64,000 bases of DNA from an uncultured Trueperaceae bacterium (GTDB lineage Bacteria; Deinococcota; Deinococci; Deinococcales; Trueperaceae): contig CAWFFU010000003.1 of NCBI GenBank assembly GCA_963815215.1, forward strand, positions 288,001 to 352,000, in the 5' to 3' direction. Every line of letters starts with the position of its first letter. The stretch's first letter is position 1. The translations under genes were made by a program, and so were the position numbers. This document shows, one piece after another, positions 29,256 to 50,665 of this stretch. The notes under the pieces were generated by a model that had not been told where the DNA came from, ran no database searches, and was given only the letters and a program-made list of their open reading frames with translations.

Positions 29256-30643
29256 GCGTCGGCTCGCGCGCCCGGCTCGGGCGCCTGATCCTCATCGTGC
29301 TGTGGGTGGCTGCGGCGTCCGCCGGCGCGCAGAACGCGCTGGTGGTCAACGGCGTGACGGTCGACGGCAACACCACCGAACTGGTCGCCGGGACCAGCTA
29401 CGCGCCCGCGGCTGCCCTGGCCAGCGCCCTCGGCGCCCGCTACTTCACCGATGCCGACACCACCATGGCCACGCTCCAGCTAGGTGGGCACCTGCTGTCC
29501 GTGGCGGTGGTGAGCGACCCCGCCCAGGCGAGCGCACAGGGTACGGCGCTGCACCTCGACGGGAGACCCGTCGCCGGGCCGGCGGGGGTCCTGAGCAACG
29601 GCGACGTGCTGGTGCCGGTGAAGCCGGTCGCCGAGGCGCTCGGCGGTCGCGTGGCCTACCTGCAGAAGGACCACACGGTCGTGGTGGTGCAACCGCGGGC
29701 GCAGGTCATCGCGCTCGCCGCTCAGGGCAGCAGCCCGCAGCAGCGGCTGACGATACGGGTGTCGGCCCCGGTCGGGTTCTCGCAGTTCTACAACGAGCCG
29801 GTGGGGACGTTGCAGCTCCACTTCGACCGCACCGACGTGGCGCCGGACGTGAGCGGCGTGGTGGGCGACGCATTCGTGCGCGCCGACGCCGGAGCGTCGG
29901 GCGGAGGCACCGACGTACGCGTGCAGCTCGCCCCCGGTACCAGCTATCGGGTGTACAGCCTCCCCGACGGCAACGGCTTCCGGGTCGTGGTGGCGTTCAC
30001 GCCCACGGGCGCGACCGTGCGGACCGGAGCGCACATCGTGATCGACCCCGGCCACGGCGGGGGGGACCCGGGCATTGCCTTCCCCGGCTACGGCAGCGAG
30101 GCGTCGCTCACGCTTGCGTTCGCCGATGAGCTCCAGAAGGCGCTGGAGCTGCGTGGCTTCGACGTGTCGTTGACACGCACCGGCGATTACGCCGTGAGCG
30201 CCGCCACACGTTCGCGTGACGGCGTCGGCGCCGATCTGTTCGTGTCGATCCATGGCGCGGTGCTGCCGGCCGGGCAGTTCCATGCCTACTACCTGGCCGA
30301 CGCCAGCGGCGTGAGCTCACTCGATGCCGCCATCCGCAAGAACGCTCAGAGCGCGGTGCAGAGCCAGGACGTGAACGCCCTGCGCCGCAAGATCCTGCTC
30401 GGACTGCTGCCGCAGCTCGACGTCGGCCGCAGCTTCGCGGAGGGACTGGGCACGCAGCTCTTCCAGAACGGGGGCTACCGGTCGAGCGACACCGCCGGAG
30501 CACCGCTGTACGTGCTCGGAGGGGCCGCCGGTCGGGGGATCCTGCTGGAGTTCAGCCCCCAGGACCTGGCCTCTAACGCGCTGCCCGGGGACCTGGCGAG
30601 CGCGCTGGCGGCGCTGCTCGGTTCTGGGGGCGCCACCCCATGA
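29252..30643 (+). CDS. Secreted N-acetylmuramoyl-L-alanine amidase (Amidase_3) with N-terminal accessory domains
   Basis: Signal peptide; IDPGHGG, E, LTR, FVSIH, ILLE; GTG overlaps the smpB stop. Confidence 0.82.
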   Translation: MSVGSRARLGRLILIVLWVAAASAGAQNALVVNGVTVDGNTTELVAGTSYAPAAALASALGARYFTDADTTMATLQLGGHLLSVAVVSDPAQASAQGTALHLDGRPVAGPAGVLSNGDVLVPVKPVAEALGGRVAYLQKDHTVVVVQPRAQVIALAAQGSSPQQRLTIRVSAPVGFSQFYNEPVGTLQLHFDRTDVAPDVSGVVGDAFVRADAGASGGGTDVRVQLAPGTSYRVYSLPDGNGFRVVVAFTPTGATVRTGAHIVIDPGHGGGDPGIAFPGYGSEASLTLAFADELQKALELRGFDVSLTRTGDYAVSAATRSRDGVGADLFVSIHGAVLPAGQFHAYYLADASGVSSLDAAIRKNAQSAVQSQDVNALRRKILLGLLPQLDVGRSFAEGLGTQLFQNGGYRSSDTAGAPLYVLGGAAGRGILLEFSPQDLASNALPGDLASALAALLGSGGATP

Positions 30644-35216: not shown

Positions 35217-36476
35217 TCACCGTCGCTCCAGCAGGTAGCGGAGCAGCTCGCTCTCGGCGACCGGTGCCTGCTCGCCACTGGCCAGGTGCTTGACCTGCAG
35301 CACCCCTTGCTCCCGTTCGCTGCCGCCGCGCAGGCCGGCGAACGCTGCGCCGCTGCGATCGGCCTCCTTCAGCCCCTTGCCGGGATTGCGCGGCTGGTAG
35401 CTGTGCTCGACCCGGACGTGGTCCCGCAGGGCGATGGCCAGCCGCGTGACCTCCAGCACGGCCGGTTCGTCGAGCGGCACCAGGAAGAGCGCGGGGCGGT
35501 CCTCGTCGACCGGCGCCACCCCTTCCTGGGCCAGGGCGTCGAACACCCGTTCGATGCCGACCGCCCAGCCCACGCCCGGGAGCGGCGGGCCTCCGAGTCT
35601 CTCGATCAGGCCGTCGTAACGGCCGCCGCCGCCCAGCGCCGACTGAGCGCCGATCCCCTCGAAGTGGACCTCGAAGGCCGTTCGGCGGTAGTAGTCGAGC
35701 CCGCGCACGATGGCGGGGTCGATCTCGTAGGGCACGTCCCACGCGTCCAGATAGCCGCGCACCTCGTCCAGGTGCGCGCGGGCGCCCTCGCCCAGGAAGT
35801 CGATGGGGCGCTTGAGCCCCTCGAGCAGGGCCTGGTCCTCCTCGGACTTGCTGTCGAGCACCCGCATGGGGTTGAGTTCCAGCCGCCGTCGGCTCGTCTC
35901 CGACAGCGCTTCCGCCCGTGGGGCGAGCTGTTCACGCAGGTAGGCGTTGTAGGCCGCGCGGTCTTGAGGATCGCCGACCGAGCCCAGCCGCATGTGGTGC
36001 CGGCGCAGCCCGCTGCGGTGCAGGACCCGGTACAGGAGCTGGACCGCCTCGGCGTCGGCGAGCGCCTGGGAAAGCCCCACGATCTCGAGGTTGATCTGGT
36101 GGAACTGGCGGTAGCGTCCGCGTTGCACGTTCTCGGCGCGGAACAGAGGACCGGCGCTCCACAGCTTCACGGGCCGTGGCAGCGTGTGCATGCCGTGCTC
36201 GATGAAGGCGCGCAGCACACCGGCGGTGAACTCCGGCCGCAGCGTCAGCTGCCGTCCACCGCGATCCTCGAAGCTGTACATCTCCTTCTGCACCACCAGG
36301 TCGGCGGAATCGCCCACGGACTTGTCGAAGACCTCGCTGTACTCGAACACCGGCGTCGTCAGCCGGCGGGCACCGGCGCGCGAGAGCTCGAGCTCGACCG
36401 CGGCCAGCAGATGCCGCCAGAGGGGCTGCTCGTCGGGGAGGACGTCGTGGGTGCCCTTCACGGCTTGCGGTTTCAT
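35217..36476 (-). CDS. hisS: Histidine--tRNA ligase
   Basis: KEMYSF, LRPEFTA, FRAE, RGLDYY, GGGRYD. Confidence 0.98.
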
Positions 36477-36582
36477 AGGGTCCGAGTCTACCGCGCTCCG
36501 GCGCGCGCGCCACGAGCAGCGGGGCCGCTCATGGCGGCCCCGCAGGTCGATGGGCGGCGTTGCGCCGCTCGCGAGATTCGGC

Positions 36583-36945
36583 TCAGGGGAAGTTAGCGGG
36601 GAGGCCGTTGCTGGCCTGGCCGTCTACGACGACGAAGACGAAGCCGTACCCCGCGTTCTGCGGTTCGGTGAACTCGATGCGGCTGGGGCTCCACGACGTC
36701 GGCTTCACCTTCATGCCGCCCTCGAGGTTCATGTTCGCCCCGATCAGGACGTAGCTGTTCGCCCCCGTACCACCATGGCCGTCGCCGAAGTAGCGGCCCT
36801 GGAGCACGACGGTGCCGCCCCTCGTCTGTGGGGACGTGACGGAGATCAGGGTCGGGGTCACGTTGGTCGCCACCGCGGTGGTGGGTGCGCACGCTGCTAG
36901 CGTGATGGCAAGCAACCCGAGCGCTATCCAGGCAAGACGCTTCAC
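36583..36945 (-). CDS. Small lipoprotein, IPT/TIG-like beta domain
   Basis: Lipobox LAAC; GAGGAGG RBS; SWSPSRIEFTEP; SNGLP end. Confidence 0.75.
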   Translation of the reverse strand: MKRLAWIALGLLAITLAACAPTTAVATNVTPTLISVTSPQTRGGTVVLQGRYFGDGHGGTGANSYVLIGANMNLEGGMKVKPTSWSPSRIEFTEPQNAGYGFVFVVVDGQASNGLPANFP

Positions 36946-36966
36946 GGTCTCCTCCTCGTTCACCAG

Positions 36967-36995
36967 AGCCTACGGAGCGCGGCGCCCTGCGTCAA
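36967..36995 (-). promoter_or_regulatory. Sigma70-type promoter of the lipoprotein gene
   Basis: TTGACG-17 bp-TAGGCT on the minus strand. Confidence 0.65.
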
Positions 36996-37053
36996 TGGGA
37001 TGTTTCATAGCCTGCGGGCGGGCCCCTCCGCTGCTCACGGTACGATATTCGGC

Positions 37054-37635
37054 GTGAGTAGCCACTACTTCGCCTACCTTGCGCGGCTGAAGTACATCCT
37101 GCGGTGGGGCCTGATGCGCAACACTCGCCCGGAGAACACGCAGGAGCACAGCCTGCAGGTGGCGATGGTGGCGCATGCCCTGGCGGTGATCCGCAACAGG
37201 GTCTACGGCGGCGCCGTCGATCCCGACCGCACCGCGTTGCTGGCGGTATTCCACGACGCCGAGGAGGTCATCACCGGCGACGTGCCGACCCCCATCAAGT
37301 ACTTCAACCCCAAGGTGGCCGAGGCGATGGACGGGATCCGGGACGTAGCCCGCGATCGTCTGTTGGCGATGCTGCCGGAGGAGCTCCGCGGCGCCTATCG
37401 GGATCTGTTGTTCCCGTCGAGCGCGGACGCCGCCGAGTGGCGGCTGGTCAAGCTCGCCGACAAGCTGACCGCCTACCTCAAGTGCGTGGAGGAAGCCAAG
37501 GCGGGCAACGAGGAGTTCGCTCGCGCGGAGCAGGTCATCCGCGCCGATCTCGCCGCGATCGAGGAGCCGGAGGTCGCGTACTTCCTGGAGACGTTCGCGC
37601 CGAGCTTCCAGTTGACGCTCGACGAATTGAACTGA
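37054..37635 (+). CDS. yfbR: HD-domain 5'-deoxynucleotidase
   Basis: RLKYILRWGLMRN...ENTQEHS, FHD, TGDVPTPIKY, ADKL, GNEEF. Confidence 0.92.
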   Translation: MSSHYFAYLARLKYILRWGLMRNTRPENTQEHSLQVAMVAHALAVIRNRVYGGAVDPDRTALLAVFHDAEEVITGDVPTPIKYFNPKVAEAMDGIRDVARDRLLAMLPEELRGAYRDLLFPSSADAAEWRLVKLADKLTAYLKCVEEAKAGNEEFARAEQVIRADLAAIEEPEVAYFLETFAPSFQLTLDELN

Positions 37636-37824
37636 ATCACGGCTGCGGAATTCACAAGCGCACGAGCAGATACCTTGTGACATCGTGCGCATGCTGGCAT
37701 GACGGGCGTGACCGTCGGCAACGGAGACCGGCGGGGAAGAGCGACGCCCGGCTGGTAGACTTCTCTGGCGCCGGACGCGACGGACACGCGGCAGACCGCC
37801 GGCGACGGGCGGAGGTGAGGCGAC

Positions 37825-39216
37825 ATGGTTCAGGCTCCCGACTTGGAGGCCCAGCGCGAGGAGCTCCTGGAGCTGGTCGAGGCGCGACGCTTCGAGGAGC
37901 TGCGTTTGCGGCTTCGCGACCGTGAGCCGCACGACCTCGCCGAGCTGATGGACGACCTGCCGCACGAGGCCGAGGCCGTGGTGTTCCGTATCCTGCCGCG
38001 CGACCTGGCCGCCGACACCTTCGAGTACCTGCGGGTAGACGCACAGGAGCGGTTGCTCAGGGCGATGGGCGAGCGCGAGGTGGCGCTCGTCCTCAACGAC
38101 ATGTCGCCGGACGATCGCACCGCACTGCTCGAGGAACTGCCCGGCAAGGTGACCAAGCGGCTGCTCAACCTGCTGTCGCCCGACGAGCGCAGCGTGGCCA
38201 CACGCCTGCTCGGTTACCCCGAAGACTCGGTCGGACGACTCATGACGCCCGACTATGTGGCCGTCAAGCCGCACTGGACGGTCGGCGACGCTCTGACGCA
38301 CATCCGCGAGTTCGGCAGTGACTCGGAGACCCTCAACATCCTGTACGTGACGGCCAAGGGTGGCCGGCTCATCGACGACCTTCGCATGCGCGAGCTGCTG
38401 CTGGTCGATCCGGACACCCGCATCGAGGCGCTCATGGACCGCCAGTTCGTGGCGCTGGAGGCGACGCAGGACCAGGAGGAGGCGGTCAGCGCCTTCCGGA
38501 GGCTGGACCGTACGGCGCTGCCGGTCACGGACACAGGCGGGATCCTGGTCGGCATCGTGACGGTGGATGACGTGCTGGACGTGGCCGAGGAGGAAGCCAC
38601 CGAGGACTTCCACAAGCTCGGCGGTGTCGAGGCGTTCGACGAGCCCTACCTCCGCATCGCGATCCCGGCCCTGGTCCGCAAGCGGGCGGTGTGGCTGGTG
38701 ATGCTGTTCATCGGCGAGATGCTCACCGCCACGGCGATGGGGTTCTTCCAGAACGAGATCGCCAAGGCGGTGGTGCTGTCGCTGTTCATCCCGCTCATCA
38801 TCTCCAGCGGCGGCAACTCCGGCTCGCAGGCGGCCACGCTGGTCACCCGGGCCATGGCGCTGGGCGAGGTCACGATGCGCGACTGGTGGCGCGTGACGCG
38901 GCGCGAGCTGGTCGCCGGGTTGTCGCTCGGCGTCATCCTTGGTGCCGTGGGCTTCGCACGCATCACCGTGTGGGCCCTCGCGTTCAACATGTACGGCCCG
39001 CACTGGCCCCTCATCGCCGCCACCATCTTCTTCTCGCTGATCGGTGTGGTGCTGTGGGGCTCGCTGGCGGGCTCGCTGCTGCCGATCGTGCTCAAGCGCG
39101 TCGGCGCCGACCCGGCGTCGTCGTCGGCGCCCTTCGTGGCGACCATCGTGGACGTGACGGGCATCATCATCTTCTTCACGGTGGCGGCGACGCTGCTGAC
39201 CGGCACACTGCTATAG
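37825..39216 (+). CDS. mgtE: Magnesium transporter MgtE
   Basis: N-domain, CBS pair, GIVTVDD, SGGNSGSQ, APFVATIVD. Confidence 0.96.
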   Translation: MVQAPDLEAQREELLELVEARRFEELRLRLRDREPHDLAELMDDLPHEAEAVVFRILPRDLAADTFEYLRVDAQERLLRAMGEREVALVLNDMSPDDRTALLEELPGKVTKRLLNLLSPDERSVATRLLGYPEDSVGRLMTPDYVAVKPHWTVGDALTHIREFGSDSETLNILYVTAKGGRLIDDLRMRELLLVDPDTRIEALMDRQFVALEATQDQEEAVSAFRRLDRTALPVTDTGGILVGIVTVDDVLDVAEEEATEDFHKLGGVEAFDEPYLRIAIPALVRKRAVWLVMLFIGEMLTATAMGFFQNEIAKAVVLSLFIPLIISSGGNSGSQAATLVTRAMALGEVTMRDWWRVTRRELVAGLSLGVILGAVGFARITVWALAFNMYGPHWPLIAATIFFSLIGVVLWGSLAGSLLPIVLKRVGADPASSSAPFVATIVDVTGIIIFFTVAATLLTGTLL

Positions 39217-39332
39217 ACACTCCGCTGTAGACGCCCTGCGGCGTAGTCGATGACGTCGGCGGCGCTCGGCCCTGGAGGGAGCCGAATGTCCCTGCAGCAC
39301 CGACGTATCGTGGGCTCGCACGGGAGGTGCCT

Positions 39333-41876
39333 ATGACACGGCCACGTGGAATCCCTCCGACTTCAGACGCTCAGACTCCTGTGAAGGATGCGGACCAGCT
39401 CGACGACGTGCTGCATTCCCTCGACACCACACTCGATGGCCTGAGCGGGGAAGAGGCGGCCGAGCGCCTGGAGCGCTACGGCCGCAACGCGCTGGCGGAG
39501 CGCACGCGCAACCCGCTGGGCCAGTTCCTGTCCTACCTGTGGGGCCCGATCCCCTGGATGATCGAGGTCGCGGCGATCCTTTCCGTCATCGACCGGCACT
39601 GGGCGGACCTCGTCATCATCGTGACGCTCCTGCTATTCAACGCAGCCGTGGGCTTCTTCCAGGAGTTCCAGGCCACCAACGCGGTGGACGCCTTGAAGAG
39701 GCAGCTCGCGCTGAAGGCCCGGGTGCGCCGAGACGGCAGCTGGCGGCAGATCGATGCTGCCGAGCTCGTACCGGGCGACGTGTTGCGCCTCCGGCTCGGG
39801 GACATCGTGCCCGGGGACGTCAAGCTGGCGGACGGCGACTTCCTCAGCGTCGACCAGTCGGCGTTGACGGGCGAGTCGTTGCCGGTCCAGAAGCGGGCGG
39901 GTGACGCCGCGTACTCGGGGTCCGTCGTGAAGCAGGGGGAGATGGTGGCCGTGGTGACGGCCACCGGGAGCAGCACCTTCTTCGGCAAGACGGCCAGGCT
40001 GGTGGGCGAGGCGAAGTCGGTGTCGCACTTCCAGCGTGCGGTGTTGCGCATCGGTGACTACCTGATCTACCTGAGCCTGGTGCTCGCCGCCGTGCTGGTG
40101 TTGGTGCAGGTCGGTCGTGGGGCGCCGCTGGTGACGCTGGCGCAGTTCACGCTGATCTTGGTGGTGGCGGCGATCCCCGTGGCGATGCCGGCGGTGCTGT
40201 CGGTCACCATGGCGATCGGGGCCAGGACTCTGGCCGGGATGAAGGCCATCGTCACGCGGCTCGAGTCGATCGAAGAGATGGCGGGCATGGACATCCTGTG
40301 CTCGGACAAGACGGGCACCCTGACGCAGAACAGCCTGACCCTGGGCGACCCTGTGCTGTTCGGGGCGGTCGACGCGCAGCAACTCATCCTGGCCGCGGCG
40401 CTGGCCTCGGTAGAGGAGGACCAGGACGCCATCGACCTTGCCGTGCTGGGCGGTTTGGAGGACGCATCCATGGCGGCAACGTTCCGGCGGCGGTCGTTCA
40501 CGCCGTTCGACCCCGTCGGCAAGCGCACGGAAGCGACGATCGACGACCCCGCGGGTGGCTCGTTCCGGGTCAGTAAGGGGGCGCCGCAGGTGATCCTCGA
40601 CCTGTGCCGGACCGCGCCGTCGGTCCGGGCCCGGGCCGAGCAGACGATCGACGACCTGGCCGCGAAGGGCTATCGCACCCTGGGTGTGGCCCGGTCGGAC
40701 GGTGGACAGGGGTGGACGTTCCTGGGGATCCTGCCGCTGTTCGATCCGCCACGGGAGGACTCGCCCGAGACCATCCGACGGGCGCGTGAGCACGGCGTCG
40801 AGGTCAAGATGGTCACCGGCGATAACGTGGCGATCGCACGCGAGATGAGCGGACGGCTCGGCCTGGGGCAGAACATCCGGGCGGTCGAGGACCTGTCCAC
40901 GGACGACGCGGACGACGCTTTCGACGATGGAGCGGTCGAGGACGCCGATGGCTTCGCGCAGGTGTTCCCGGAGCACAAGTACCGCATCGTGAAGCGCCTA
41001 CAGGCCTTGGGTCACATCGTCGGCATGACCGGTGACGGGGTGAACGATGCCCCGGCACTCAAGCAGGCGGACACCGGGGTCGCCGTGAGCGGGGCCACCG
41101 ATGCCGCCCGCGCGGCCTCCGACCTGGTGCTCGTCGCGCCGGGGCTGTCGGTCATCGTGCGCGCCATCGAAGAGGCCCGCAAGATCTTCGAGCGCATGAA
41201 CAGCTATGCCATCTACCGCATCACCGAGACGATCCGCATCATGGTGTTCGTGGTCCTGGCCATGACGGTGTTCAACGTCTATCCGATCACCGCCATCATG
41301 ATCATCCTGCTGGCGTTCTTCAACGACGTGCCCATCATGGCCATCGCCTACGACAACACCTGGCTCGACCCGAAGCCCGTGCGTTGGGACATGCGCCGGA
41401 TCCTTACCGTCTCGACCGTCCTGGGGCTGATCGGTGTGATCGAGACCTTCGGCCTGCTGGTCCTCGGGCGTGTGTGGCTCCAGCTCGACAACGCCCAGAT
41501 CCAGAGCTTCATCTTCCTGAAGCTGGCCGTGGCCGGCCACCTTACGCTGTTCGTGGCGCGCACCCGCAAGCCGTTCCTGAGCCGACCGCACCCGGCGCCG
41601 GTGGTGCTGTGGTCGGCCATCGTGACCAAGATCGCGGCCACGTTGCTGGTGGCCTTCGGGCTGGGCCTGGTCGCGCCCATCTCGTGGCTGGACATCGGCC
41701 TGATCTGGGGGTACTGCCTGGTCTGGATCTTCATCGAGGACTGGGCCAAGCTCGCGACCTACCACCACTTGGATCTCAGCGGACCTCGGCATCGCTCGTT
41801 CCTCGACCGCATCCAGACGCCTCTCCACGCTTACGGCAAGACGCATCGCGGGCGCTCGGCCTCCGGCGGCGACTAG
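39333..41876 (+). CDS. Plasma-membrane-type proton-efflux P-type ATPase (P3A)
   Basis: WGPIPWMIE, TGES, IPVAMP, DKTGTLT, KGAP, GDGVNDAPALK, YRITETIR, FFNDVPIM. Confidence 0.92.
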   Translation: MTRPRGIPPTSDAQTPVKDADQLDDVLHSLDTTLDGLSGEEAAERLERYGRNALAERTRNPLGQFLSYLWGPIPWMIEVAAILSVIDRHWADLVIIVTLLLFNAAVGFFQEFQATNAVDALKRQLALKARVRRDGSWRQIDAAELVPGDVLRLRLGDIVPGDVKLADGDFLSVDQSALTGESLPVQKRAGDAAYSGSVVKQGEMVAVVTATGSSTFFGKTARLVGEAKSVSHFQRAVLRIGDYLIYLSLVLAAVLVLVQVGRGAPLVTLAQFTLILVVAAIPVAMPAVLSVTMAIGARTLAGMKAIVTRLESIEEMAGMDILCSDKTGTLTQNSLTLGDPVLFGAVDAQQLILAAALASVEEDQDAIDLAVLGGLEDASMAATFRRRSFTPFDPVGKRTEATIDDPAGGSFRVSKGAPQVILDLCRTAPSVRARAEQTIDDLAAKGYRTLGVARSDGGQGWTFLGILPLFDPPREDSPETIRRAREHGVEVKMVTGDNVAIAREMSGRLGLGQNIRAVEDLSTDDADDAFDDGAVEDADGFAQVFPEHKYRIVKRLQALGHIVGMTGDGVNDAPALKQADTGVAVSGATDAARAASDLVLVAPGLSVIVRAIEEARKIFERMNSYAIYRITETIRIMVFVVLAMTVFNVYPITAIMIILLAFFNDVPIMAIAYDNTWLDPKPVRWDMRRILTVSTVLGLIGVIETFGLLVLGRVWLQLDNAQIQSFIFLKLAVAGHLTLFVARTRKPFLSRPHPAPVVLWSAIVTKIAATLLVAFGLGLVAPISWLDIGLIWGYCLVWIFIEDWAKLATYHHLDLSGPRHRSFLDRIQTPLHAYGKTHRGRSASGGD

Positions 41877-42581
41877 CGGTCGGAGAGGCGCGGCCATCGC
41901 GGCCCCCGGCCGGCCAGTGTGCGACCGCGGGAGACCGCGGTGGCCGCGGTGGCCGCGAGTAGTGGGGACGCATGTCGGCACCGCCCTCATCGCGCGCCTG
42001 CGGCGGCGCGACATACGGATCCGGCCTCGGACCGTAGTCAACAAGTGTTATCAAATCTTCTTGGACCTCAATCACCTCCGCGCACGGTCGGACGCTCCAC
42101 GCCGAACCCACCAACGCATGACTTGCGATGTCGTGTGGGACGCGCTGTCAGGCCTATACCGACCCGTCTGTATAGAACATGATCAACGAAACAGACGGAT
42201 CTCCATCCCGGCAGGTGCAGCCGAACAGGCCCCGCGCAGCGAGTGCGTGCGTTGCTGAAGCGCATGGGAGCGACCCTGCTGGCGTGGGCCGGCCGGCGCC
42301 GCATCGAGGGCGCCGAGCGCGTCTTCGGGATCGTGCCGGAGCGCCGGCCCGCGGGTAGCTGCGGGCGCCTGCGCCGGCGCGGGGCCTGCGCCGGCGTTGT
42401 CGTGCGCCGGCTTGGACCCGCCGCCGAGGGAACGAGGGGTCGAGTGGACTTCGGACGAGTGGACCCGCGGCCGAGCGCACGCCTCGGTCCGAGGCGGCAG
42501 CGATCGGCGTTCCTGGACCGTCCGCTGTCTGGTGGGAGCGCGGTGGCAGCCGGACGCTTCGGCGGAGTGCCGGAGTGTTAA

Positions 42582-42609
42582 AAACCTGATAACTCGTCTT
42601 ATCAGGGTT
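42582..42609. other. Putative dif-like tyrosine-recombinase site (11-6-11)
   Basis: AAACCTGATAA-CTCGTC-TTATCAGGGTT; arms are a 10/11 inverted repeat with ATAA/TTAT inner ends; 71 bp upstream of the recombinase. Confidence 0.7.
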
Positions 42610-42680
42610 TGATATCCTGCGTACATGAAGTGCTGCTGTACGCCATCGCGCCGCCCCGGGTCGGCCGCACGGGGTGCGCT

Positions 42681-43670
42681 GTGAGCGACCTCCAACGCTA
42701 CCAGGGCGACGCTCTCAACCGGGCCGAGGGTTGGGCCTCGCTGCCCGCCGACGAGCTCCGGCGCCGGGCCGCCCGCGCGGCCAACGCCCGCGACCTCGAC
42801 GAGTTGTGGGCGCTGACCGAAGCCTACCTGTTCCTGCATGGCTCCAAGGGCTCACGGGCCAGTCGGCACACGCTCCGCACCTATCGGCGCGGCATCGCAG
42901 ACCTTATCGAGGGCTGGCAGGACGAGAACCTGCTGAGGCCGACGCGCGACGCCGGGGTGCTCTACATCCGCCGGCTGGAGTCCACACCCGGCGTGGTGTC
43001 GGGCGAACGGCCGCAGCCGTCGACGCTTCAAGTGAAACTCGCCGCGGCCCGCACGCTCTTCCGAGCGCTGCGGTGGGCCGGCGCCACCGAGGCGCGCCCG
43101 TTCGAGAACGTGCGCGTCGCCAAGGACCCCACACCTCCGTGGGAGAAACGCCGCCCCTACGGCGATCGTGAGGTCGAACGGCTGATCGACCTGGCCGACG
43201 CGGCCGAGCGCGTGGTCGTCCTTCTGGGCGCGCACGCCGGGCTGCGCATCAGCGAGATGACGGCGTTGCGCTGGGGCGATCTCGATCTGGAGCGCGGCGA
43301 GCTGCTCGTCACGGCCGGCAAGGGCGGCAAGAGCGCGCGCGTCCACCTCACACGCCGGCTGCGCGAGGCGCTGGTGTCGCTCCGCCGGGGTGGATTGGCG
43401 GTCCGGCGTCAGCGCGACGCAGGCTACGTGCTGCCCTGGGGCACCGACCATACCCGCAAACACTTCCGCACCCTGTGCCAGCGGGCGGGCGTCGACTATG
43501 CCTCGGCGGGCGTGCACGGCCTGCGCCACGGGGCCGGGACCCGCTACTACCGGCAGACCCACGACCTGGGCCGGGTGGCGGCGCACCTGCGGCACGCCGA
43601 CATCCAGACCACCAGGATCTACGCCAAGATCGACCAGGACGCTATCGGCGAGGATATCGACGACTGGTGA
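42681..43670 (+). CDS. Xer-like tyrosine recombinase
   Basis: Complete catalytic set: GLRISE (R), GKGGK (K), HGLRH (HxxR), LRHAD (H), TRIY (Y); SRHTLRTY core-binding motif; 329 aa. Confidence 0.93.
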   Translation: MSDLQRYQGDALNRAEGWASLPADELRRRAARAANARDLDELWALTEAYLFLHGSKGSRASRHTLRTYRRGIADLIEGWQDENLLRPTRDAGVLYIRRLESTPGVVSGERPQPSTLQVKLAAARTLFRALRWAGATEARPFENVRVAKDPTPPWEKRRPYGDREVERLIDLADAAERVVVLLGAHAGLRISEMTALRWGDLDLERGELLVTAGKGGKSARVHLTRRLREALVSLRRGGLAVRRQRDAGYVLPWGTDHTRKHFRTLCQRAGVDYASAGVHGLRHGAGTRYYRQTHDLGRVAAHLRHADIQTTRIYAKIDQDAIGEDIDDW

Positions 43671-43745
43671 GCGGGAGCGGGATGGTGCGCCGAAGTGCAC
43701 GATCCGAGCCCGCGCTCTTCGTCCGGGGCCCCTCCCGCGCACCGC

Positions 43746-44234
43746 TCAGCCGCCTAGCGCGTACGGTCTCAGTTGGGCACGCATCTCGCCGGGCTTGTGA
43801 TTCTCGGAGTGGATCTGTATGTAGAGGTCGCCGGCCTTGAGCGACTTCACCTGGTCGGCGGTGAGCTGGAAGGTGCCGCGGATGCTGCCTGCGACGGTGC
43901 CGTCGACGTTGAGGCTGAAAAGGATCGGGCCGTTGTCGCTCGGGCCGCCCTGGTGGATGTGCGCTCCGCCGCGTAGCTCGCGGGCAACGGGGCTGGAGAG
44001 GGCCTGGAACGACCCCAGCACGTCGAGTTGGTTGCCGTCCAACACGGCCACCGCGAAGCCGCTGGCCCCTGTGTTCACCGGCGGAACGACGTTCCTGGGG
44101 CTCAGGTTGGCGCTGAAGACTTCGAGAGGGGCCGACTGGGCCGCGGCGGTCGCCACGATGCCCGGTATCGCCACTAGCGCAAGCGCGAAGATCGCGTTGC
44201 GGACCGTGCGCGGAAGCGAACGAGGACGGGTCAT
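43746..44234 (-). CDS. Secreted CHRD-domain protein
   Basis: Signal peptide; VVPPV...AHIH...NGPILF...LYIQIHS...PGEMRAQL. Confidence 0.88.
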   Translation of the reverse strand: MTRPRSLPRTVRNAIFALALVAIPGIVATAAAQSAPLEVFSANLSPRNVVPPVNTGASGFAVAVLDGNQLDVLGSFQALSSPVARELRGGAHIHQGGPSDNGPILFSLNVDGTVAGSIRGTFQLTADQVKSLKAGDLYIQIHSENHKPGEMRAQLRPYALGG

Positions 44235-44436
44235 ATGCCTCACCTCCACGCCCACGGTGGCATGACAGCGCGAGGGAATGCGTCGCACGCGAATGAGGTT
44301 CGCCTGAGGCCTACCTGAGCCTCCGTGCCCGGCCGATTCCCGCGTCGACCCGCTCACCAACGTCGACCCGCGTCGGCCTTCCCGAGGACCGGGCCAACGC
44401 AACGCTCCGAGCTATCGCATGCCGCTCCGCTGCGGC

Positions 44437-45123
44437 CTACTCTCGGCGTGCGGCTCGCGTAGCGGTTGCAGGTCCCTGTTCGATCGGCCCGACCTCGGGT
44501 CTTCTCCGACCGGTCGCACTCTCCCCTTCGTGAGTTGCGCTTCGACTCCACGGTGTGCTTAGGGCCGGAAGCAGCCAGCGATCGAACCCCCACCAACCGG
44601 CCGTCTTCCATGCCAGCACCAGTAGAGTGGCGATCGCCAACAGGATGGGATTCGTGCTCACCGCCCCCGCGAGCAGATAGCTGGTGTTCATGACACTCCC
44701 GAAGAAGGCGGCGATCCCGGTGAAGATGCCCAGGATCAACGCGACGCCCACCAGGAGCTCGCCCCAGGCCACCACGTAGCCCCACGGGACGGGGTAAGGC
44801 AAGACGATGTGCTGCAAGAACCAGCCGTACCAGGCCTGCACTGCGGGATGCGCCCCTCCCGTTTGCGCCAGGGCCCCTTTGACGAAACCCGTGAGCGCGG
44901 TGCCGGCCTGGCCGCCCGTCCAGGCCGCACTGGTGACCTTCTCCCACCCTGCGCTGGCCCACTGCCAGCCTACGTAGAGGCGCAGGATCAGCCAGATCCA
45001 GGCCCAGCGCACGTCCCCGAACAGCGCTCGGGCCAGAGGTGGATCGTGGATGGTCCTTCTCGCGTTTCTGGCGTTCCTGACGTTCTTCCGAGTCGGTTGC
45101 GTGCCATGTGGAAGGGTTGCCAT
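44437..45123 (-). CDS. DoxX/DoxD-family membrane protein
   Basis: LRLYVGWQWASAGWEK, WGELLVGVALILG, AGAVSTNP, AGWWGFDR. Confidence 0.88.
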   Translation of the reverse strand: MATLPHGTQPTRKNVRNARNARRTIHDPPLARALFGDVRWAWIWLILRLYVGWQWASAGWEKVTSAAWTGGQAGTALTGFVKGALAQTGGAHPAVQAWYGWFLQHIVLPYPVPWGYVVAWGELLVGVALILGIFTGIAAFFGSVMNTSYLLAGAVSTNPILLAIATLLVLAWKTAGWWGFDRWLLPALSTPWSRSATHEGESATGRRRPEVGPIEQGPATATRAARRE

Positions 45124-45287
45124 GGTGTCACATCCTTCGTTCTTTCAACGGGTGCATCGCAGGCTGCCAAGGCGTGGACTGCGAGACCATCCCATCTGCG
45201 GCTAGGTCGATGTGTGCGTACGGGATCTCCAGGCACCGTCTTCGAGGTCGAGCTGCGCACCCCTCCTCCCGCTCGACCTCCCGACGT

Positions 45288-46688
45288 TCACAAGGCTCTT
45301 GGATGCTTGCCCTGTTTCCAGTGCGCTTCGATCTGCTCGAGGCTTCGGCCCTTCGTTTCCGGCACCAGGGCGAAGGCGAAGACCCATGCCCCGATGCTGA
45401 TGAGCCCGAACAGCCAGAAGGTGATGGGTTTGCCGAGCGTCTGCGTGAGCGTCAGGAACGACACGGCCACGATCAGGTTGGCGGCCCAGTTGGCGAGCGT
45501 CCCGATGCTCATGGCCCGGCCGCGGATTCGCAGCGGGTAGATCTCCGAGAGCATGAGCCAGAAGACCGGTCCCAGCCCTACCGCGAAGGAGCCGACGTAC
45601 ACCATGAGACTGGCCAGCGCCAACCATCCCAGGCTGCCGGACAACTGCGGAAGCGAGAACGCCAGCCCCAACACGGCCAGACTCAGTGCCATTCCCGCGA
45701 GGCTGACCAGCAGCAGGGGCCGCCGTCCGACCCGGTCGATCAGTTGCATCGCCACCAGGGTCAGCGCGACGTTCACGACGCCTACGCCGACGCTGGCCAG
45801 GATCGCTACCGACGAGGACGACAGGCCGGCGAACTTGAAGATCGTAGGAGCGTAGTAGATGACGGTGTTGATGCCGGTGACCTGCTGCGCGATGGCCAGA
45901 CCGACGCCGACGATCATGGCCGGTCGCAGTAGGGGGCTGAGCAGTTCCGACCAGTGTCCCTTCTGTTGCGCCACACTCTGCCCGATGTCCTCGAGCTCAC
46001 CTTCGACCTGGGCAGGGGTGCGAAGGCGTGTCAGCGCAGCCCGGGCCCGGTCGGTGTGGCCGTGGCCGACAAGCCACCGCGGGCTGTTGGGAATGAACAT
46101 CAGTCCGATCCCGAAGGCTGCGGCCGGGATCACCGAGAGCGCGAACATCCAGCGCCAGGCCTGCGCCCCGGCGAAGGCATAGTCGATGATGTAAGAGATG
46201 ACGATGCCGCTCGTTAGAGCGACCTGGTTGATCGAAACCAGCTTCCCGCGGATGGCGACCGGGGCGATCTCGGAGATGTACAAGGGAGCGACGAACGAGG
46301 CGATGCCGATAGCGGCGCCGGCAAGGACGCGGGCGGCGATCAACCACGCCGTGCCCGGCGCCAGGGCCGCCGCGACGGCACCCACCGCGAAGACGGCGGC
46401 GGTGGCGATCAGGAGCCTCCGGCGCCCGAGGCGGTCGGCCAGCATCCCCCCGACGCCCGCACCGATCAGCGATCCCAACAGGACCGAGCTGACGACGATC
46501 TCCTCCATCCCGGACGATAGAGAGAAGTCCCGTTGGATGAAGAGGATGGCTCCGGAGATGACGCCGATGTCGTAGCCGAAGAGCATGCCGCCCAGCGCCG
46601 ATATGGCAGTTGCCACGTATACGAGACGCTTCACAGCTGGCGTGGTGCCGTCCGTCTTGGCCGCGGTCGCCTGGGCCTCAGTCGTCAT
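45288..46688 (-). CDS. Sugar porter family MFS transporter
   Basis: GGMLFGYD, DRLGRR, YISE, PNSPRW, QQVTGIN, PETKG. Confidence 0.95.
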   Translation of the reverse strand: MTTEAQATAAKTDGTTPAVKRLVYVATAISALGGMLFGYDIGVISGAILFIQRDFSLSSGMEEIVVSSVLLGSLIGAGVGGMLADRLGRRRLLIATAAVFAVGAVAAALAPGTAWLIAARVLAGAAIGIASFVAPLYISEIAPVAIRGKLVSINQVALTSGIVISYIIDYAFAGAQAWRWMFALSVIPAAAFGIGLMFIPNSPRWLVGHGHTDRARAALTRLRTPAQVEGELEDIGQSVAQQKGHWSELLSPLLRPAMIVGVGLAIAQQVTGINTVIYYAPTIFKFAGLSSSSVAILASVGVGVVNVALTLVAMQLIDRVGRRPLLLVSLAGMALSLAVLGLAFSLPQLSGSLGWLALASLMVYVGSFAVGLGPVFWLMLSEIYPLRIRGRAMSIGTLANWAANLIVAVSFLTLTQTLGKPITFWLFGLISIGAWVFAFALVPETKGRSLEQIEAHWKQGKHPRAL

Positions 46689-47662
46689 CGGCCTCCCCCT
46701 TCCGCTGGATGGCGGTTCGCCTGAACCCTCGGTCGGATGCTTCGGATCTCCGACGTTGCAGCGACCTCCACGAACTTCCAGGAGATCTCTATGCAGGCCA
46801 CGCGCCCGTCAGCCGCCGGGGCGGCGTTCGGCGCCAGCCAGAAGGCGTCCCCCGTGCCTGACCTGCGATCGCGATATGGGGCACGGGGGCTTACGGCTTC
46901 CGAAACACGCGTATGGTCTGAGTTCGCGACTCCGCCGTATCTTCCCGGGTCCGTCGCTGAACGCCGCGTAAGCGGCTCCCTAGTCCATCCCGAGCCGAGC
47001 CACGACCTCGATCGTGTTGTGGTGCGGTTCCGGCTGAGCACCCAGGGCAGCGTAGGACAGCTCAGACGCAGGGGGCCGCTGCTCGCAAGAGACCGACTCG
47101 CTCCGGTATGCCCGCAGCCTGAGCGGCCCTGCCAGACCGATGAGGACGCTCGGCGGATGGCGCTGTTCCATCTCGGCCAACACGAACGCGCGCTGTCTGG
47201 CTCTCCGTCTCCGTCCCCGATCTTCGGTAGCGGTGATGCCAGTGATGCGTGACTGCAGCGGCCTGAGATTCTGAAGCAATGACGTGATGGGACTCGCTCG
47301 TTTCATGAGACCACCGTCAATCCGGTGCCGGCCAATGTCAGTCGGTACCCGCCAATACTAGGGACCGCAACCGCCAGTGACGAGAGTTATCTGGACCCTG
47401 AGGTCTGGGTTCAATACCCCAGACGGTACGCGAGGGTCCCGCCCCTTGTCGGGCCTGCTGTCCGCTGGCGGCGTTTCGGTCCCCTCACGAAGGAGCTGTA
47501 CTGTGACCCGAGAAGGCCAGCGGGCGCGGCGGGCGCCGCTGGTGCAGGCGCCCCGTACGGCGGTCAACGCTCGGCCTGGGGGCGCCCGGGTTCTTGGCGG
47601 GCGGCGAGAGCGCCTCCGGCACCTCGCGGGGACTTCGCGGCTCACGAGAGGACTTCGGTGCA

Positions 47663-49765
47663 ATGACGACGGACTGGACCATGGGTGATGCTTGGGGTGC
47701 CCTCAACACGACCCCAGAGTTGGACCAGCGCTGCATCGACACCCTCCGCTTCCTATCGGTCGATATGGTGCAGAAAGCAGGCAGCGGGCATCCCGGCCTG
47801 CCGATGGGCGCTGCCGCGTTCACCTATGTGTTGTGGACGCGTTTCCTCCGGCACAATCCTGCGAATCCGCGGTGGGCGAATCGCGATCGGTTCGTGTTGT
47901 CGGCCGGACACGGCTCGGCGTTGCTGTACAGCCTGCTACACCTGACCGGCTACGATCTTCCTCTCGGGGAGATCGAGCGGTTCCGCCGCTGGGGCAGCGT
48001 CACCCCCGGGCACCCGGAGAGCGAGCTGACGCGGGGTGTGGAGGTCACCACCGGTCCTCTCGGACAGGGCTTGGCAAATTCTGTCGGGATGGCCATCGCG
48101 GAGCGCTACCTGTCATCACGATTCAACCGGCCCGGCCACGAGATCGTGGACCACCACACGTATACCCTCGTGGGTGACGGCGATCTGATGGAAGGCGTCG
48201 CGTCGGAAGCCGCCTCGTTGGCGGGCCATCTCAAGCTCGGCAAGCTCCTCGTTCTCTACGACGACAACCGCATCACGCTCTCCGCCGGCACGGCCATGAC
48301 CTTCACCGAGGATCGCGCGGGGCGCTTCGAGGCGTACGGCTGGCATGTCCGGACGGTGGAGGACGGCAACGACCTGGAGGCGGTCGACGCCGCACTGCGG
48401 GCGGCCCGCTCGGAGACGGAGCGACCGTCGTTGATCCTGCTGCGTACCCACATCGGCTACGGTTCCCCGAACAAGGAGGACACCTTCGAAGCGCACGGTT
48501 CGCCGCTCGGCGTCGATGAGGTCCAGCGGGCGAAGAAGGCCTCGGGATGGCCGGTGGAGCCCCCCTTCTACATCCCCGACGGCGCCCTCGCACACTTCCG
48601 TCAGGCCGTCGAGCGGGGCAAGCAGGCCGAGGCCACGTGGGACGAGGCGTTCGCCGCGTACGCCAGCGACCATCCCGAGCTCGCGCGAGCCTACCAACAG
48701 GCCGTTCGAGGAGACGTGCCGGCCGGCTGGGACGCCGACATCCCCGTCTTCGACGCCGATGGCCCCGGGATGGCCACGCGAGTCGCATCGGGAAAGGTCC
48801 TCGACGCCGTCCGTCGTCGGCTGCCGGGCCTGGTCGGCGGCTCGGCCGACCTCGACCCGTCGACGCACACGGCGCTGGCGGCCATGGGGGACTTCCAGAA
48901 CCCGGCGTACGCCAGCGGCGACTTGCAGGGTTCGGCGGGCGGTGGATGGAGCTACGCAGGACGCAACCTGCACTTCGGCGTCCGCGAGCATGCCATGGGG
49001 GCGATCGCCAACGGTCTCGCAGCTCACGGTGGCCTGCTCCCGTTCACGGCCACGTTCCTGGTGTTCTCCGACTACATGCGCCCGCCCATTCGGCTCGCCG
49101 CCCTCATGCGACTGGGCGTCATCTTCGTGTTCACCCACGACAGCGTCGCACTGGGCGAAGACGGCCCCACACACCAGCCGATCGAGCAGCTGGCGAACCT
49201 CCGTGCGGTCCCGAACCTCACCGTCCTGCGGCCGGCCGACGCCAACGAGGTGGCCGTCGCCTGGCGCGTGGCGGTCGAAACGCGCGATCGCCCGACCGTC
49301 CTGGTGCTCACGAGGCAGACCGTGCCTACCCTCGACCGGAGCCGGCTCGCGACCGCCGACGGGCTCCGGAAGGGGGCCTACGTCCTGGCCGACGTTCCGG
49401 ATGGGCGAGCCGACATCGTTCTCATCGCCAGCGGCTCGGAGGTGGGGCTGATCGAGGAGGCGCGCCGGCTGCTGGCGCAGCAAGGGGTCAAGGCCCGGAC
49501 GGTATCCATGCCGAGCTGGGAGTTGTTCGAAGCACAGCCCCCGGAGTACCGCGAGTCGGTGTTGCCGGCGTCCGTGCCCGCGCGTCTGGCCGTCGAGGCC
49601 GGCGCCACGCAGGGTTGGCACGCGTACGTCGGCGACGGCGGGGCCGTGATCGGAATCGACCACTTCGGGGCGTCTGCGCCTGGCGAGGTCGTGATGGAGG
49701 AGTTCGGGTTCACGCCCGCCAATGTCGTCCGGCGTGCTCTCGCCGTCTTGGAACGTCAGGGCTGA
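47663..49765 (+). CDS. tkt: Transketolase (start uncertain, 47663 or 47681)
   Basis: [43 protein letters not shown]. Confidence 0.97.
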
Positions 49766-49819
49766 CCGGTGCCGGTGCGCGCGTGGCAGGTAGGGAACGA
49801 AGGGACCGGGGGTGGTTGC

Positions 49820-50665
49820 ATGAAGCCGTACTCGCCCAACAAGGTGTCGTTGGTGCTCGCCGATGTGGATGGGACCCTGGTGACGGAGGACAAACTCCTG
49901 ACGCCGCGGGCGAAGGGGGCGGTCACGTCCTTGCGGGCGGCCGGCATCGCCTTCGCGATCACGAGCGGCCGGCCTCCGCGCGGCCTGAAGTCGATCATCG
50001 ATGATCTCGGTGTAGACACCGTCGTGGCCGGGTTCAACGGTGGCGTGTTCACGACGCCGGAGCTCGACGTGGTGCTGTCACGGTTCCTGGACAGGGCGAT
50101 CGCCCAGCACACGCTACGACTGCTTGGCGAGCACCAATTGACCGCCTGGCTCTACACCGATACGGACTGGTACGTGCCGGAAGCGGACGGGCCGCACGTC
50201 GCTCGGGAAACCGCGACGGTGGAATTCGAGGCCAAGGTGGCCCAGGACTTCGACCCGCTGCTGGAACGCGCCGTCAAGATCGTGGGCGTGAGCGACGATC
50301 TGGACGCGGTCGCCAGCTGCGAAGCGGCGATGCAGGCCGCGCTGAGCGGTGACGCTTCTGCCGAACGCTCGCAACCCTACTACCTGGACGTCACCCACAG
50401 CAAGGCGACGAAGGGCGCGGTCGTCGAGTACCTGTCCGAGCGCATGAGCATCCCGAGGGCGGAGATCGCGACCCTCGGCGACATGCCCAACGACGTGCCG
50501 ATGTTCGACAACAGCGGCATGAGCATCGCAATGGGGAACGCCAGCAGCGAGGTGCAGGCCCAGGCGAACTTCACCACGCTGGGGAATGACGAGGACGGTT
50601 TCGCACGCGGTATCGAGACGCACGTCCTGAGTGGGCGGCGAGCGACGGGCCACGGGGGGACGTAG
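49820..50665 (+). CDS. Cof-type HAD-IIB hydrolase
   Basis: DVDGTL, TSGR, SQPYYLDVT, GDMPND. Confidence 0.9.
   Translation: MKPYSPNKVSLVLADVDGTLVTEDKLLTPRAKGAVTSLRAAGIAFAITSGRPPRGLKSIIDDLGVDTVVAGFNGGVFTTPELDVVLSRFLDRAIAQHTLRLLGEHQLTAWLYTDTDWYVPEADGPHVARETATVEFEAKVAQDFDPLLERAVKIVGVSDDLDAVASCEAAMQAALSGDASAERSQPYYLDVTHSKATKGAVVEYLSERMSIPRAEIATLGDMPNDVPMFDNSGMSIAMGNASSEVQAQANFTTLGNDEDGFARGIETHVLSGRRATGHGGT

Follow-up and report, generated by a model that had tools for sequence, protein, structure and literature searches.

Is a 28-bp palindrome that lies just upstream of a gene for a Xer-like tyrosine recombinase the chromosomal dif site of its host, and does this recombinase act on it alone? The question is posed by a stretch of 64,000 nucleotides (the window) from an uncultured Trueperaceae bacterium, namely positions 288,001 to 352,000 on the forward strand of contig CAWFFU010000003.1 (C3 in the following) of assembly GCA_963815215.1. 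Dimer resolution is nearly universal in bacteria with circular chromosomes. An earlier note, made from the letters of the window, had read the locus as a single-enzyme dimer-resolution cassette, and this reading gained support from the position, conservation and uniqueness of the site and from the lone recombinase homologue in the assembly. We suggest, with a probability of roughly 80%, that the palindrome is the chromosomal dif site of the source genome and that the adjoining gene encodes a dedicated Xer-type recombinase acting on it alone. Together, the two elements appear to form a lineage-specific single-recombinase Xer/dif module, which would represent a new variant of the single-recombinase Xer systems.

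A dif site is expected to measure about 28 bp, with imperfectly inverted 11-bp arms around an asymmetric center of 6–8 bp, to occur once per chromosome at the skew shift opposite the origin, and to lie where polar FtsK words converge. The 28-mer in the window matches this description in architecture, single copy, skew-shift location and polar-word convergence. It is AT-rich, in a window with a G+C content of ~70%, and its arms are complementary at 10 of 11 positions (Table 1). The anatomy given in the earlier note, that is, 11-6-11 geometry, 10/11 arms, an asymmetric spacer and 71 bp to an intact tyrosine recombinase of 329 residues, was thus found as described. Searches of the window for the 28-mer with up to three mismatches, and for its core CTGATAA-N6-TTATCAG with up to two, each returned a single match and none in shuffled sequences. 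The core also occurred only once in the whole genome (3,316,786 bases, 14 contigs), so that the lack of a second full copy noted for the window extends to the genome, and a repeat search of window positions 36000–50000 revealed neither a second copy of the site nor flanking repeats. When copies per genome were counted in the family, as had been proposed, a single copy was present in 15 of the 18 genomes that had a match to the 18-mer of the source genus. At the site in a relative, G017, two contigs end with a ~55-bp reverse-complement overlap (G017:C9:1-120 and G017:C12:1-120), the assembly being broken there; this break may reflect differing flanks in the population or an assembler artifact at the palindrome.

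Table 1. Features at and around the dif-like site, in coordinates of the window (C3:288001-352000).
Feature	Position	Strand	Remarks
Dif-like core site, 28 bp	42582..42609	+	C3:330582-330609
Left (gene-distal) arm	42582-42592	+	AAACCTGATAA
Asymmetric central region	42593-42598	+	CTCGTC; 6 bp, differs from its own reverse complement
Right (gene-proximal) arm	42599-42609	+	TTATCAGGGTT
Left-arm extension	42577..42581	+	G-T-n-A-A, running into an A-run; conserved columns in the 13-locus alignment and site listing
-10-like hexamer	42613..42618	+	TATCCT (TAnnnT in orthologues); conserved columns; 6 nt before the conserved ATG
Upstream reading frame, 19 aa	42625..42684	+	ATG 19 nt past TTATCAG; TGA overlaps the recombinase GTG (GTGA)
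Xer-like tyrosine recombinase, 329 aa	42681..43670	+	start GTG, 71 bp past the site
GGGGGAG, closest copy left of the site	39935..39941	+	
GGGGGAG, closest copy right of the site	46693..46699	-	

The location of the 28-mer on the chromosome is that of a terminus site. The cumulative GC skew of C3 (1,211,766 bases, 10-kb bins) peaks in the bin 330001–340000, which contains the site. Polar words were chosen as the most strand-biased 7-mer and 8-mer from the flanks of C3 only (<230 kb and >600 kb). The top 7-mer, GGGGGAG, split C3 best at 327935–334693, an interval of 6.8 kb with the site inside (192 of 240 copies oriented to it), and the top 8-mer, GGGGGAGA, at 327935–351246, again with the site inside (62 of 65 copies oriented). 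Within the window, where copies of GGGGGAG span positions 1741–63253, all 15 point to the site, the 11 on the left being on the plus strand and the four on the right on the minus strand. The control words GGGGGAA, GGGGGAC, GGGGGAT and GGGGGGG were 57–65% oriented, the E. coli-type GGGCAGGG and the B. subtilis SRS 54% each, and GGGNAGGG 65%. The comparison with the GC skew that the earlier note had recommended thus places the site at the skew peak, and the site also coincides with the reversal of the polar motif. As a replicate, we analyzed 400 kb centered on the site in the complete genome of a member of another genus, G020, with an orthologue of 70% identity. There, the cumulative skew reached its maximum in the bin ending at the site, and GGGGGAG was again the top biased 7-mer of the outer flanks, with 34 plus- and three minus-strand copies to the left of the site and eight plus- and 31 minus-strand copies to its right. 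We propose GGGGGAG(A) as a candidate FtsK-orienting word for Trueperaceae, unlike the words of E. coli and B. subtilis.

The same placement was seen in complete chromosomes of relatives. The recombinase gene is separated from dnaA by 49.3% (G020), 49.1% (G033:C4), 49.7% (G043), 49.9% (G044) and 45.1% (G042) of the circle, and by ~50% (G026), 48% (G030) and 43–44% (G012, whose copy was not checked for the palindrome) in three further genomes, for which genome sizes were rounded. Hence, in eight of nine complete chromosomes, from three families of the order, the gene lies near the antipode of dnaA (~43–50%).

The site is kept wherever the recombinase is closely related. It was present at 13 of 13 loci of relatives with at least 68% identity, and at 31 of 31 loci with at least 63% identity from species-representative genomes (14 of them by a strict test), a set that comprises partly the same genomes; a conserved palindrome upstream of orthologues, the first thing that the earlier note had asked for, is therefore found. 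One of the 31 loci, L083, carries the variant AAATACGATAA-GTGGCC-TTATCAAACTT. When 13 upstream regions were aligned, the site was the sole conserved island, the surrounding intergenic DNA being unalignable. Conservation covered the distal arm plus a few bases outward of it (G-T-n-A-A-A-A-R-Y-C-T-G-A-T-A-A in the orthologue alignment), the spacer and the inner seven bases of the proximal arm, the outer four bases of which vary freely. The near-identity of the arms, from which a single enzyme had been deduced, thus holds in the source genome but not across orthologues. About three quarters of the distinct sites listed have CTCGTC as their spacer; the others differ from it by one or two changes, for example CTAGTC. 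The conserved extension of the left arm may provide an extra recombinase contact or an UP-like promoter element.

In distant relatives, different 11-6-11 palindromes with TAA/TTA inner ends precede their own recombinase genes. Among these are ATTTCCAATAA-CGGATG-TTATGGGAAAT (recombinase 50% identical to the window protein), TGGAAACATAA-TGTGTA-TTATGATTCCA (37%) and TTTTCACCTAA-GGCTGC-TTAGGTGAAAA, as well as ATTCCCGTTAA-TATCCC-TTAACAGGAAT and ATTCCCGTTAA-GGGAAA-TTAACGGGAAT in a family with 2.1–2.4-Mb genomes, and TCCGTTGATAA-TGCATG-TTATCATCGGA, which three sister-family genomes carry ahead of their chromosomal copy. For this last palindrome, the core GTTGATAA-N6-TTATCATC (up to one mismatch) occurred in 19 of 41 genomes of its genus and was single in 17 of these 19. 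As judged from these sequences, the arms of the site change along with the recombinase. Two genomes of the same sister-family genus carry, in addition to the chromosomal asymmetric site, a fully symmetric GTTGATAA-N6-TTATCAAC on another contig (G088:C63:12881 and G102:C15:63458); these extra sites may be dif sites of secondary replicons.

The protein encoded next to the site is a member of the tyrosine recombinase superfamily. It matches Pfam Phage_integrase (PF00589; E 2.9e-23; 82.9 bits, cut-off 27.1) and, at its N terminus, the SAM-like domain Phage_int_SAM_1, and it contains the R-K-H-R-H/W-Y residues of the superfamily. Of its six catalytic residues, R189, K214, H279, R282 and Y314 do not vary across 41 aligned sequences, at least 90% of which also have H305; in an alignment of 14 sequences, all six are invariant. 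An AlphaFold model (mean pLDDT 87.2) shows a two-domain tyrosine recombinase, the closest solved folds of which, according to Foldseek, are archaeal XerA, IntI4, the Tn1549 integrase, lambda Int and XerH. The protein lies outside every curated NCBIfam Xer family tested, with 74.4 bits for XerC (TIGR02224, cut-off 335.15), 53.9 bits for XerD (TIGR02225, cut-off 329.6), 48.1 bits for XerS (NF003462, cut-off 267; moreover, the central region of the site is 6 bp rather than 11) and 77.4 bits for XerA (NF040815, cut-off 220; E 1.2e-21).

Membership in the Pfam phage integrase family and the integron and transposon integrases among the best folds would also be compatible with an integrase and the attachment site of an integrated mobile element, or with an invertible switch. 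We consider this extremely improbable, as a second copy of the site was not found in the genome and no tRNA gene lies within ~12 kb on either side; a scan of window positions 30000–56000 found none, in agreement with the absence of an adjacent tRNA noted before. In addition, the flanks are of a housekeeping type (MgtE, P-type ATPase, CHRD protein, DoxX, sugar transporter and transketolase genes), the CHRD gene downstream of xer is syntenic in six loci of the genus, and orthologue identity declines with taxonomic distance (genus, family, order), in keeping with vertical descent. The probable element-type integrases of the genome sit beside tRNA genes elsewhere. The gene beyond the site on the upstream side was the same at one of nine same-genus loci examined. 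The ~700 bp between the P-type ATPase gene and the site (window positions 41877–42576) gave no Pfam or Rfam match and could be aligned to the nearest relative only; likewise, Rfam had no match in positions 41700–42800.

Does the recombinase act alone? Including the window protein, the source genome (G000) contains five matches to PF00589. Two of them, recombinases of 412 and 331 residues, are encoded within ~100 bp of tRNA genes (tRNA-Arg, Ser, Ser and tRNA-Ala; G000:C11:199162-202647 and G000:C10:326419-329973) and are probably integrases of integrated elements; the remaining two are a 519-residue protein without an NCBIfam match and a fragment. None of these four proteins reaches a Xer cut-off, and none matches the window protein at E ≤0.001. 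A second Xer-type recombinase was thus not found in the 97%-complete source assembly, nor were canonical xerC/xerD genes or a second copy of the site flanking an element, the combination that the earlier note had named as speaking against its reading. Genome G003 (97% complete) and the complete genome G020 each encode one homologue of the window protein; G003 and G019 have two tyrosine recombinases each, and in the complete genome G026 the orthologue is the only tyrosine recombinase.

The situation differs in other members of the genus. Seven of nine same-genus genomes, including the closest relative, G008, encode a second paralogue of 45–50% identity, which we term Xer2 (44–50% identity in relatives overall). 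Xer2 is 72% identical between genera and therefore appears to be maintained. It could be argued that the site is the dif of a two-recombinase system, in which the window enzyme partners Xer2 as XerC does XerD and the Xer2 gene is merely missing from the 97%-complete assembly; the unequal conservation of the arms, known from XerCD dif sites as covered in the available text of a dif survey (PMC3025954), would fit such a pair. However, the ~20–21-kb contig of metabolic genes that bears Xer2 in G008 has no counterpart in the source genome (blastn; weak paralogous hits only), G003 and G020 each have a single homologue and G026 a single tyrosine recombinase, and genomes with and without Xer2 have the same site and the same arm asymmetry. 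Moreover, no palindrome of the site type was found within 500 bp upstream of Xer2 at any of eight loci, and in two other genera Xer2 has a different palindrome of its own a few kilobases away. A two-recombinase system therefore seems improbable to us, and we favor a lone recombinase in the source genome. Xer2 may instead be accessory, or else serve a second replicon.

The palindrome associated with Xer2 in these two genera is perfect, TTTGATAA-GTCGTC-TTATCAAA, has conserved flanks and lies 5 kb (G082:C1:68644; L118:4045) and 2.9 kb (G073:C134:124; L119:124) from the gene. It could be a second dif-like site or the operator of a regulator. ZnuA is encoded between Xer2 and the palindrome in both genomes; in G082, Fur-family and GGDEF genes are also found in between, with a GntR-family gene on the other side of the palindrome. 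An interpretation of the palindrome as the mark of an element integrated at dif was not supported, as it resides on other contigs and in a conserved chromosomal context. The neighbors of Xer2 in G008 (C29, L123) and G002 (C2, L124) encode a peptide ABC transporter, formamidase, aldehyde dehydrogenase, glutamine synthetase, an MFS transporter and a GGDEF protein; the Xer2 region could represent an accessory island or, alternatively, a second replicon.

The 71 bp between site and gene, the length of which had been given correctly before, additionally contain a -10-like box and the conserved ATG of a short reading frame, both at fixed distances from the site (19–20 nt for the ATG). At 11 of 11 examined orthologue loci with at least 75% identity, the upstream frame encodes 18–51 residues; the peptide is not conserved, but the frame always overlaps the recombinase gene by 4 nt (RTGA). 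At three more distant loci, the conserved ATG is itself the recombinase start. Leaderless transcripts are common in this phylum. The conserved ATG and the TAnnnT box would fit a leaderless transcript, with the recombinase translationally coupled to the upstream frame. As the site spans positions -43 to -16 of this putative promoter, bound recombinase should hinder RNA polymerase, which makes autoregulation plausible; the recombinase probably represses its own promoter.

This arrangement also invites the view that the palindrome is an operator or promoter element only, at which the recombinase or a different dimeric regulator would control xer, and takes no part in recombination. Its overlap with the putative promoter and its fixed distance from the conserved ATG would be accounted for, and the surroundings of the similar TTTGATAA-GTCGTC-TTATCAAA look regulator-like, with GntR, Fur-family and ZnuA genes close by in G082 and ZnuA in G073. 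An operator, however, needs neither a location opposite dnaA, as seen in eight of nine complete chromosomes from three families, nor a place at the reversal of a polar motif. In addition, a conserved asymmetric spacer would be useless to a symmetric dimer, and an 11-6-11 arrangement with TAA/TTA inner ends is the core-site geometry of tyrosine recombinases. We therefore regard a purely regulatory role as very unlikely. Regulation and recombination are compatible with each other, and we consider the palindrome a dif site that may double as an operator.

A mechanism for such a dif site can be modeled on XerS, XerH and XerCD. Each 11-bp arm would be bound by one recombinase monomer. After sister chromosomes have been fused by a crossover, the two dif copies of the dimer would be brought together at the septum, and the resulting tetramer would cleave via Tyr314 at the edges of the 6-bp center and exchange strands through a Holliday junction. 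The non-palindromic CTCGTC would enforce parallel alignment of the two sites, so that the outcome would be resolution rather than inversion. FtsK, probably steered to the site by GGGGGAG(A), would trigger the reaction; an FtsK with a gamma domain is encoded in the genome (86.9 bits, cut-off 30.6). A predicted complex of recombinase residues 140–329 with FtsK gamma (77 residues) scored 0.01, which is uninformative either way. The strong, extended distal arm and the variable outer part of the proximal arm would probably lead to unequal affinity and an ordered strand exchange, and occupancy of the site should at the same time repress xer.

Several observations weigh against the assignment of the palindrome as the dif site of a lone recombinase. 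First, the position is not equally sharp by all measures. The GC skew of C3 forms a plateau at ~330–480 kb, so that the terminus is not fixed by skew alone, and in G020 GGGGGAG splits best not at the site (65 of 76 copies oriented) but 7–17 kb to its right (66 of 76). In one metagenome-assembled chromosome, G041 (CP070651.1), the gene is only 25.1% of the circle away from dnaA, which could be due to rearrangement or misassembly, and the palindrome was not detected before the G042 copy. Second, the site fades with distance. Among 24 loci at 40–59% identity, there are four at which a clear palindrome lies no more than 160 bp from the gene and another three or four with weaker or more distant ones, while none was detected at ~16; 43 of 61 sampled family genomes lack a match to the 18-mer of the source genus (a reversed-pattern control gave three hits in the same 61 genomes). 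Third, statements of absence are limited by an assembly of 14 contigs and 97% completeness, and the presence of Xer2 in most same-genus relatives means that a single-recombinase description may fail for the genus as a whole. Fourth, a scan of positions 41800–43900 for the sigma-70 promoter consensus found none, the -10-like box being defined by conservation alone, and the palindrome scores as a weak terminator-like hairpin on both strands (RNA hairpin of -17 kcal/mol, z -3.2).

Some of these points can be described further. To the right of the site, the skew is near zero for ~150 kb (G000:C3:330000-480000) and then clearly negative; the flat stretch could stem from a recent inversion or insertion, or from weak skew near the terminus. 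The orthologue of G041 (locus L083) is 63% identical to the window protein and is the one with the variant site. A terminator was considered and rejected, since the stem has only three G-C pairs, the plus strand lacks a T-run and orthologues differ in the DNA that follows the right arm; on the minus strand, no gene ends nearby, the CHRD gene ending 1.1 kb away, beyond xer.

Beyond the source genome, the loci can be joined into a wider picture, which we put forward tentatively and with more doubt than confidence. Deinococcota as a whole might harbor a previously unrecognized Xer lineage organized in self-contained cassettes; in their genomes, which are often multipartite, every replicon would have its own recombinase and a private dif, with co-evolving arms. 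The chromosomal cassette would be pinned at the terminus, and dif would at the same time serve a leaderless xer promoter as operator (in this genus via the translationally coupled upstream frame), tying the level of recombinase to the occupancy of the site, while FtsK would be steered by the lineage-specific GGGGGAG(A).

These organisms rely on recombination to mend massive DNA breakage, and many of them have more than one replicon and are polyploid. The way in which they unlink recombined chromosomes is of real interest. According to the accessible portion of a preprint on the classification of tyrosine recombinases, the Xer subgroup was not found in Deinococci, in which class-specific simple recombinases may replace Xer (10.1101/542381). 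For D. radiodurans, the available part of an FtsK study lists six putative recombinases, one of them on chromosome I, and mentions "putative dif sites", none of which is characterized there; the study assayed only E. coli XerCD/dif because the native partners were unknown, and its external data file of putative sites may list a related one (PMC9764985). Deinococcus and Thermus are not mentioned in the main text of a large dif prediction study, the supplement of which may list a related site (PMC3025954), nor in the accessible text of a review of single and double Xer systems (PMC5357621). Our literature searches, which covered sources outside subscription journals, found no published description of a Xer/dif system in Deinococcota, in line with the earlier note, which knew of no characterized equivalent. 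For Trueperaceae, the locus supplies candidates for the enzyme and for a word that guides FtsK, together with a substrate of 28 bp. Matching cassettes occur in sister families, and the question is therefore testable in cultivable Truepera, Deinococcus or Thermus. In addition, the site may be used as a marker of the replication terminus in metagenome-assembled genomes of Trueperaceae.

Compared with known Xer systems, the module combines features of several. The archaeal XerA/dif system provides the best sequence and fold matches (NF040815; 4a8e and 5hxy) and also employs one recombinase, but the score of the window protein is far below the XerA cut-off, and the host is a bacterium with FtsK. 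Archaeal XerA is not known to depend on FtsK. The other systems are compared here as described in the accessible parts of the cited papers. The dif site of XerCD, in E. coli and most bacteria, resembles the present one in its length of 28 bp, its 11-6-11 geometry and its ATAA/TTAT ends facing the center; it too is single, lies at the terminus, on which polar motifs that guide FtsK converge, and has one arm that is better conserved than the other (PMC3025954). XerC and XerD, however, are two paralogous enzymes, whereas one is found here, scoring 74.4 bits against a cut-off of 335 (XerC) and 53.9 against 330 (XerD), and the polar word is GGGGGAG(A) instead of GGGNAGGG. XerL of Legionellales is likewise a divergent single recombinase, which was missed by homology searches in a lineage thought to lack Xer, and its dif is palindromic, low in GC and near the terminus, as here; but xerL lies >400 kb from its dif, the arms of which are long uninterrupted repeats (PMC9765430), while the present site has one degenerate arm and is separated from its gene by 71 bp. 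XerH/difH of Helicobacter and Campylobacter also comprises one recombinase with dif near xer (PMC9765430). The fold of XerH (5jjv) is similar to that of the window protein (Foldseek E 4.8e-8), but its sequence is remote (phmmer E 1.1e-7), it belongs to a different phylum, and no XerH family model was among the NCBIfam matches of the window protein. In XerS/difSL of streptococci and lactococci, one recombinase has its site right beside the gene as a module, as here, but difSL measures 31 bp with an 11-bp center (PMC5357621), and the window protein is remote from the XerS model (48.1 bits, cut-off 267). Binding and strand exchange by XerS are asymmetric and FtsK dependent (PMC2965235), and the arms of the present site are similarly unequal in conservation. 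The module thus resembles XerS/difSL and XerH/difH most closely in layout and XerA most closely in sequence and fold.

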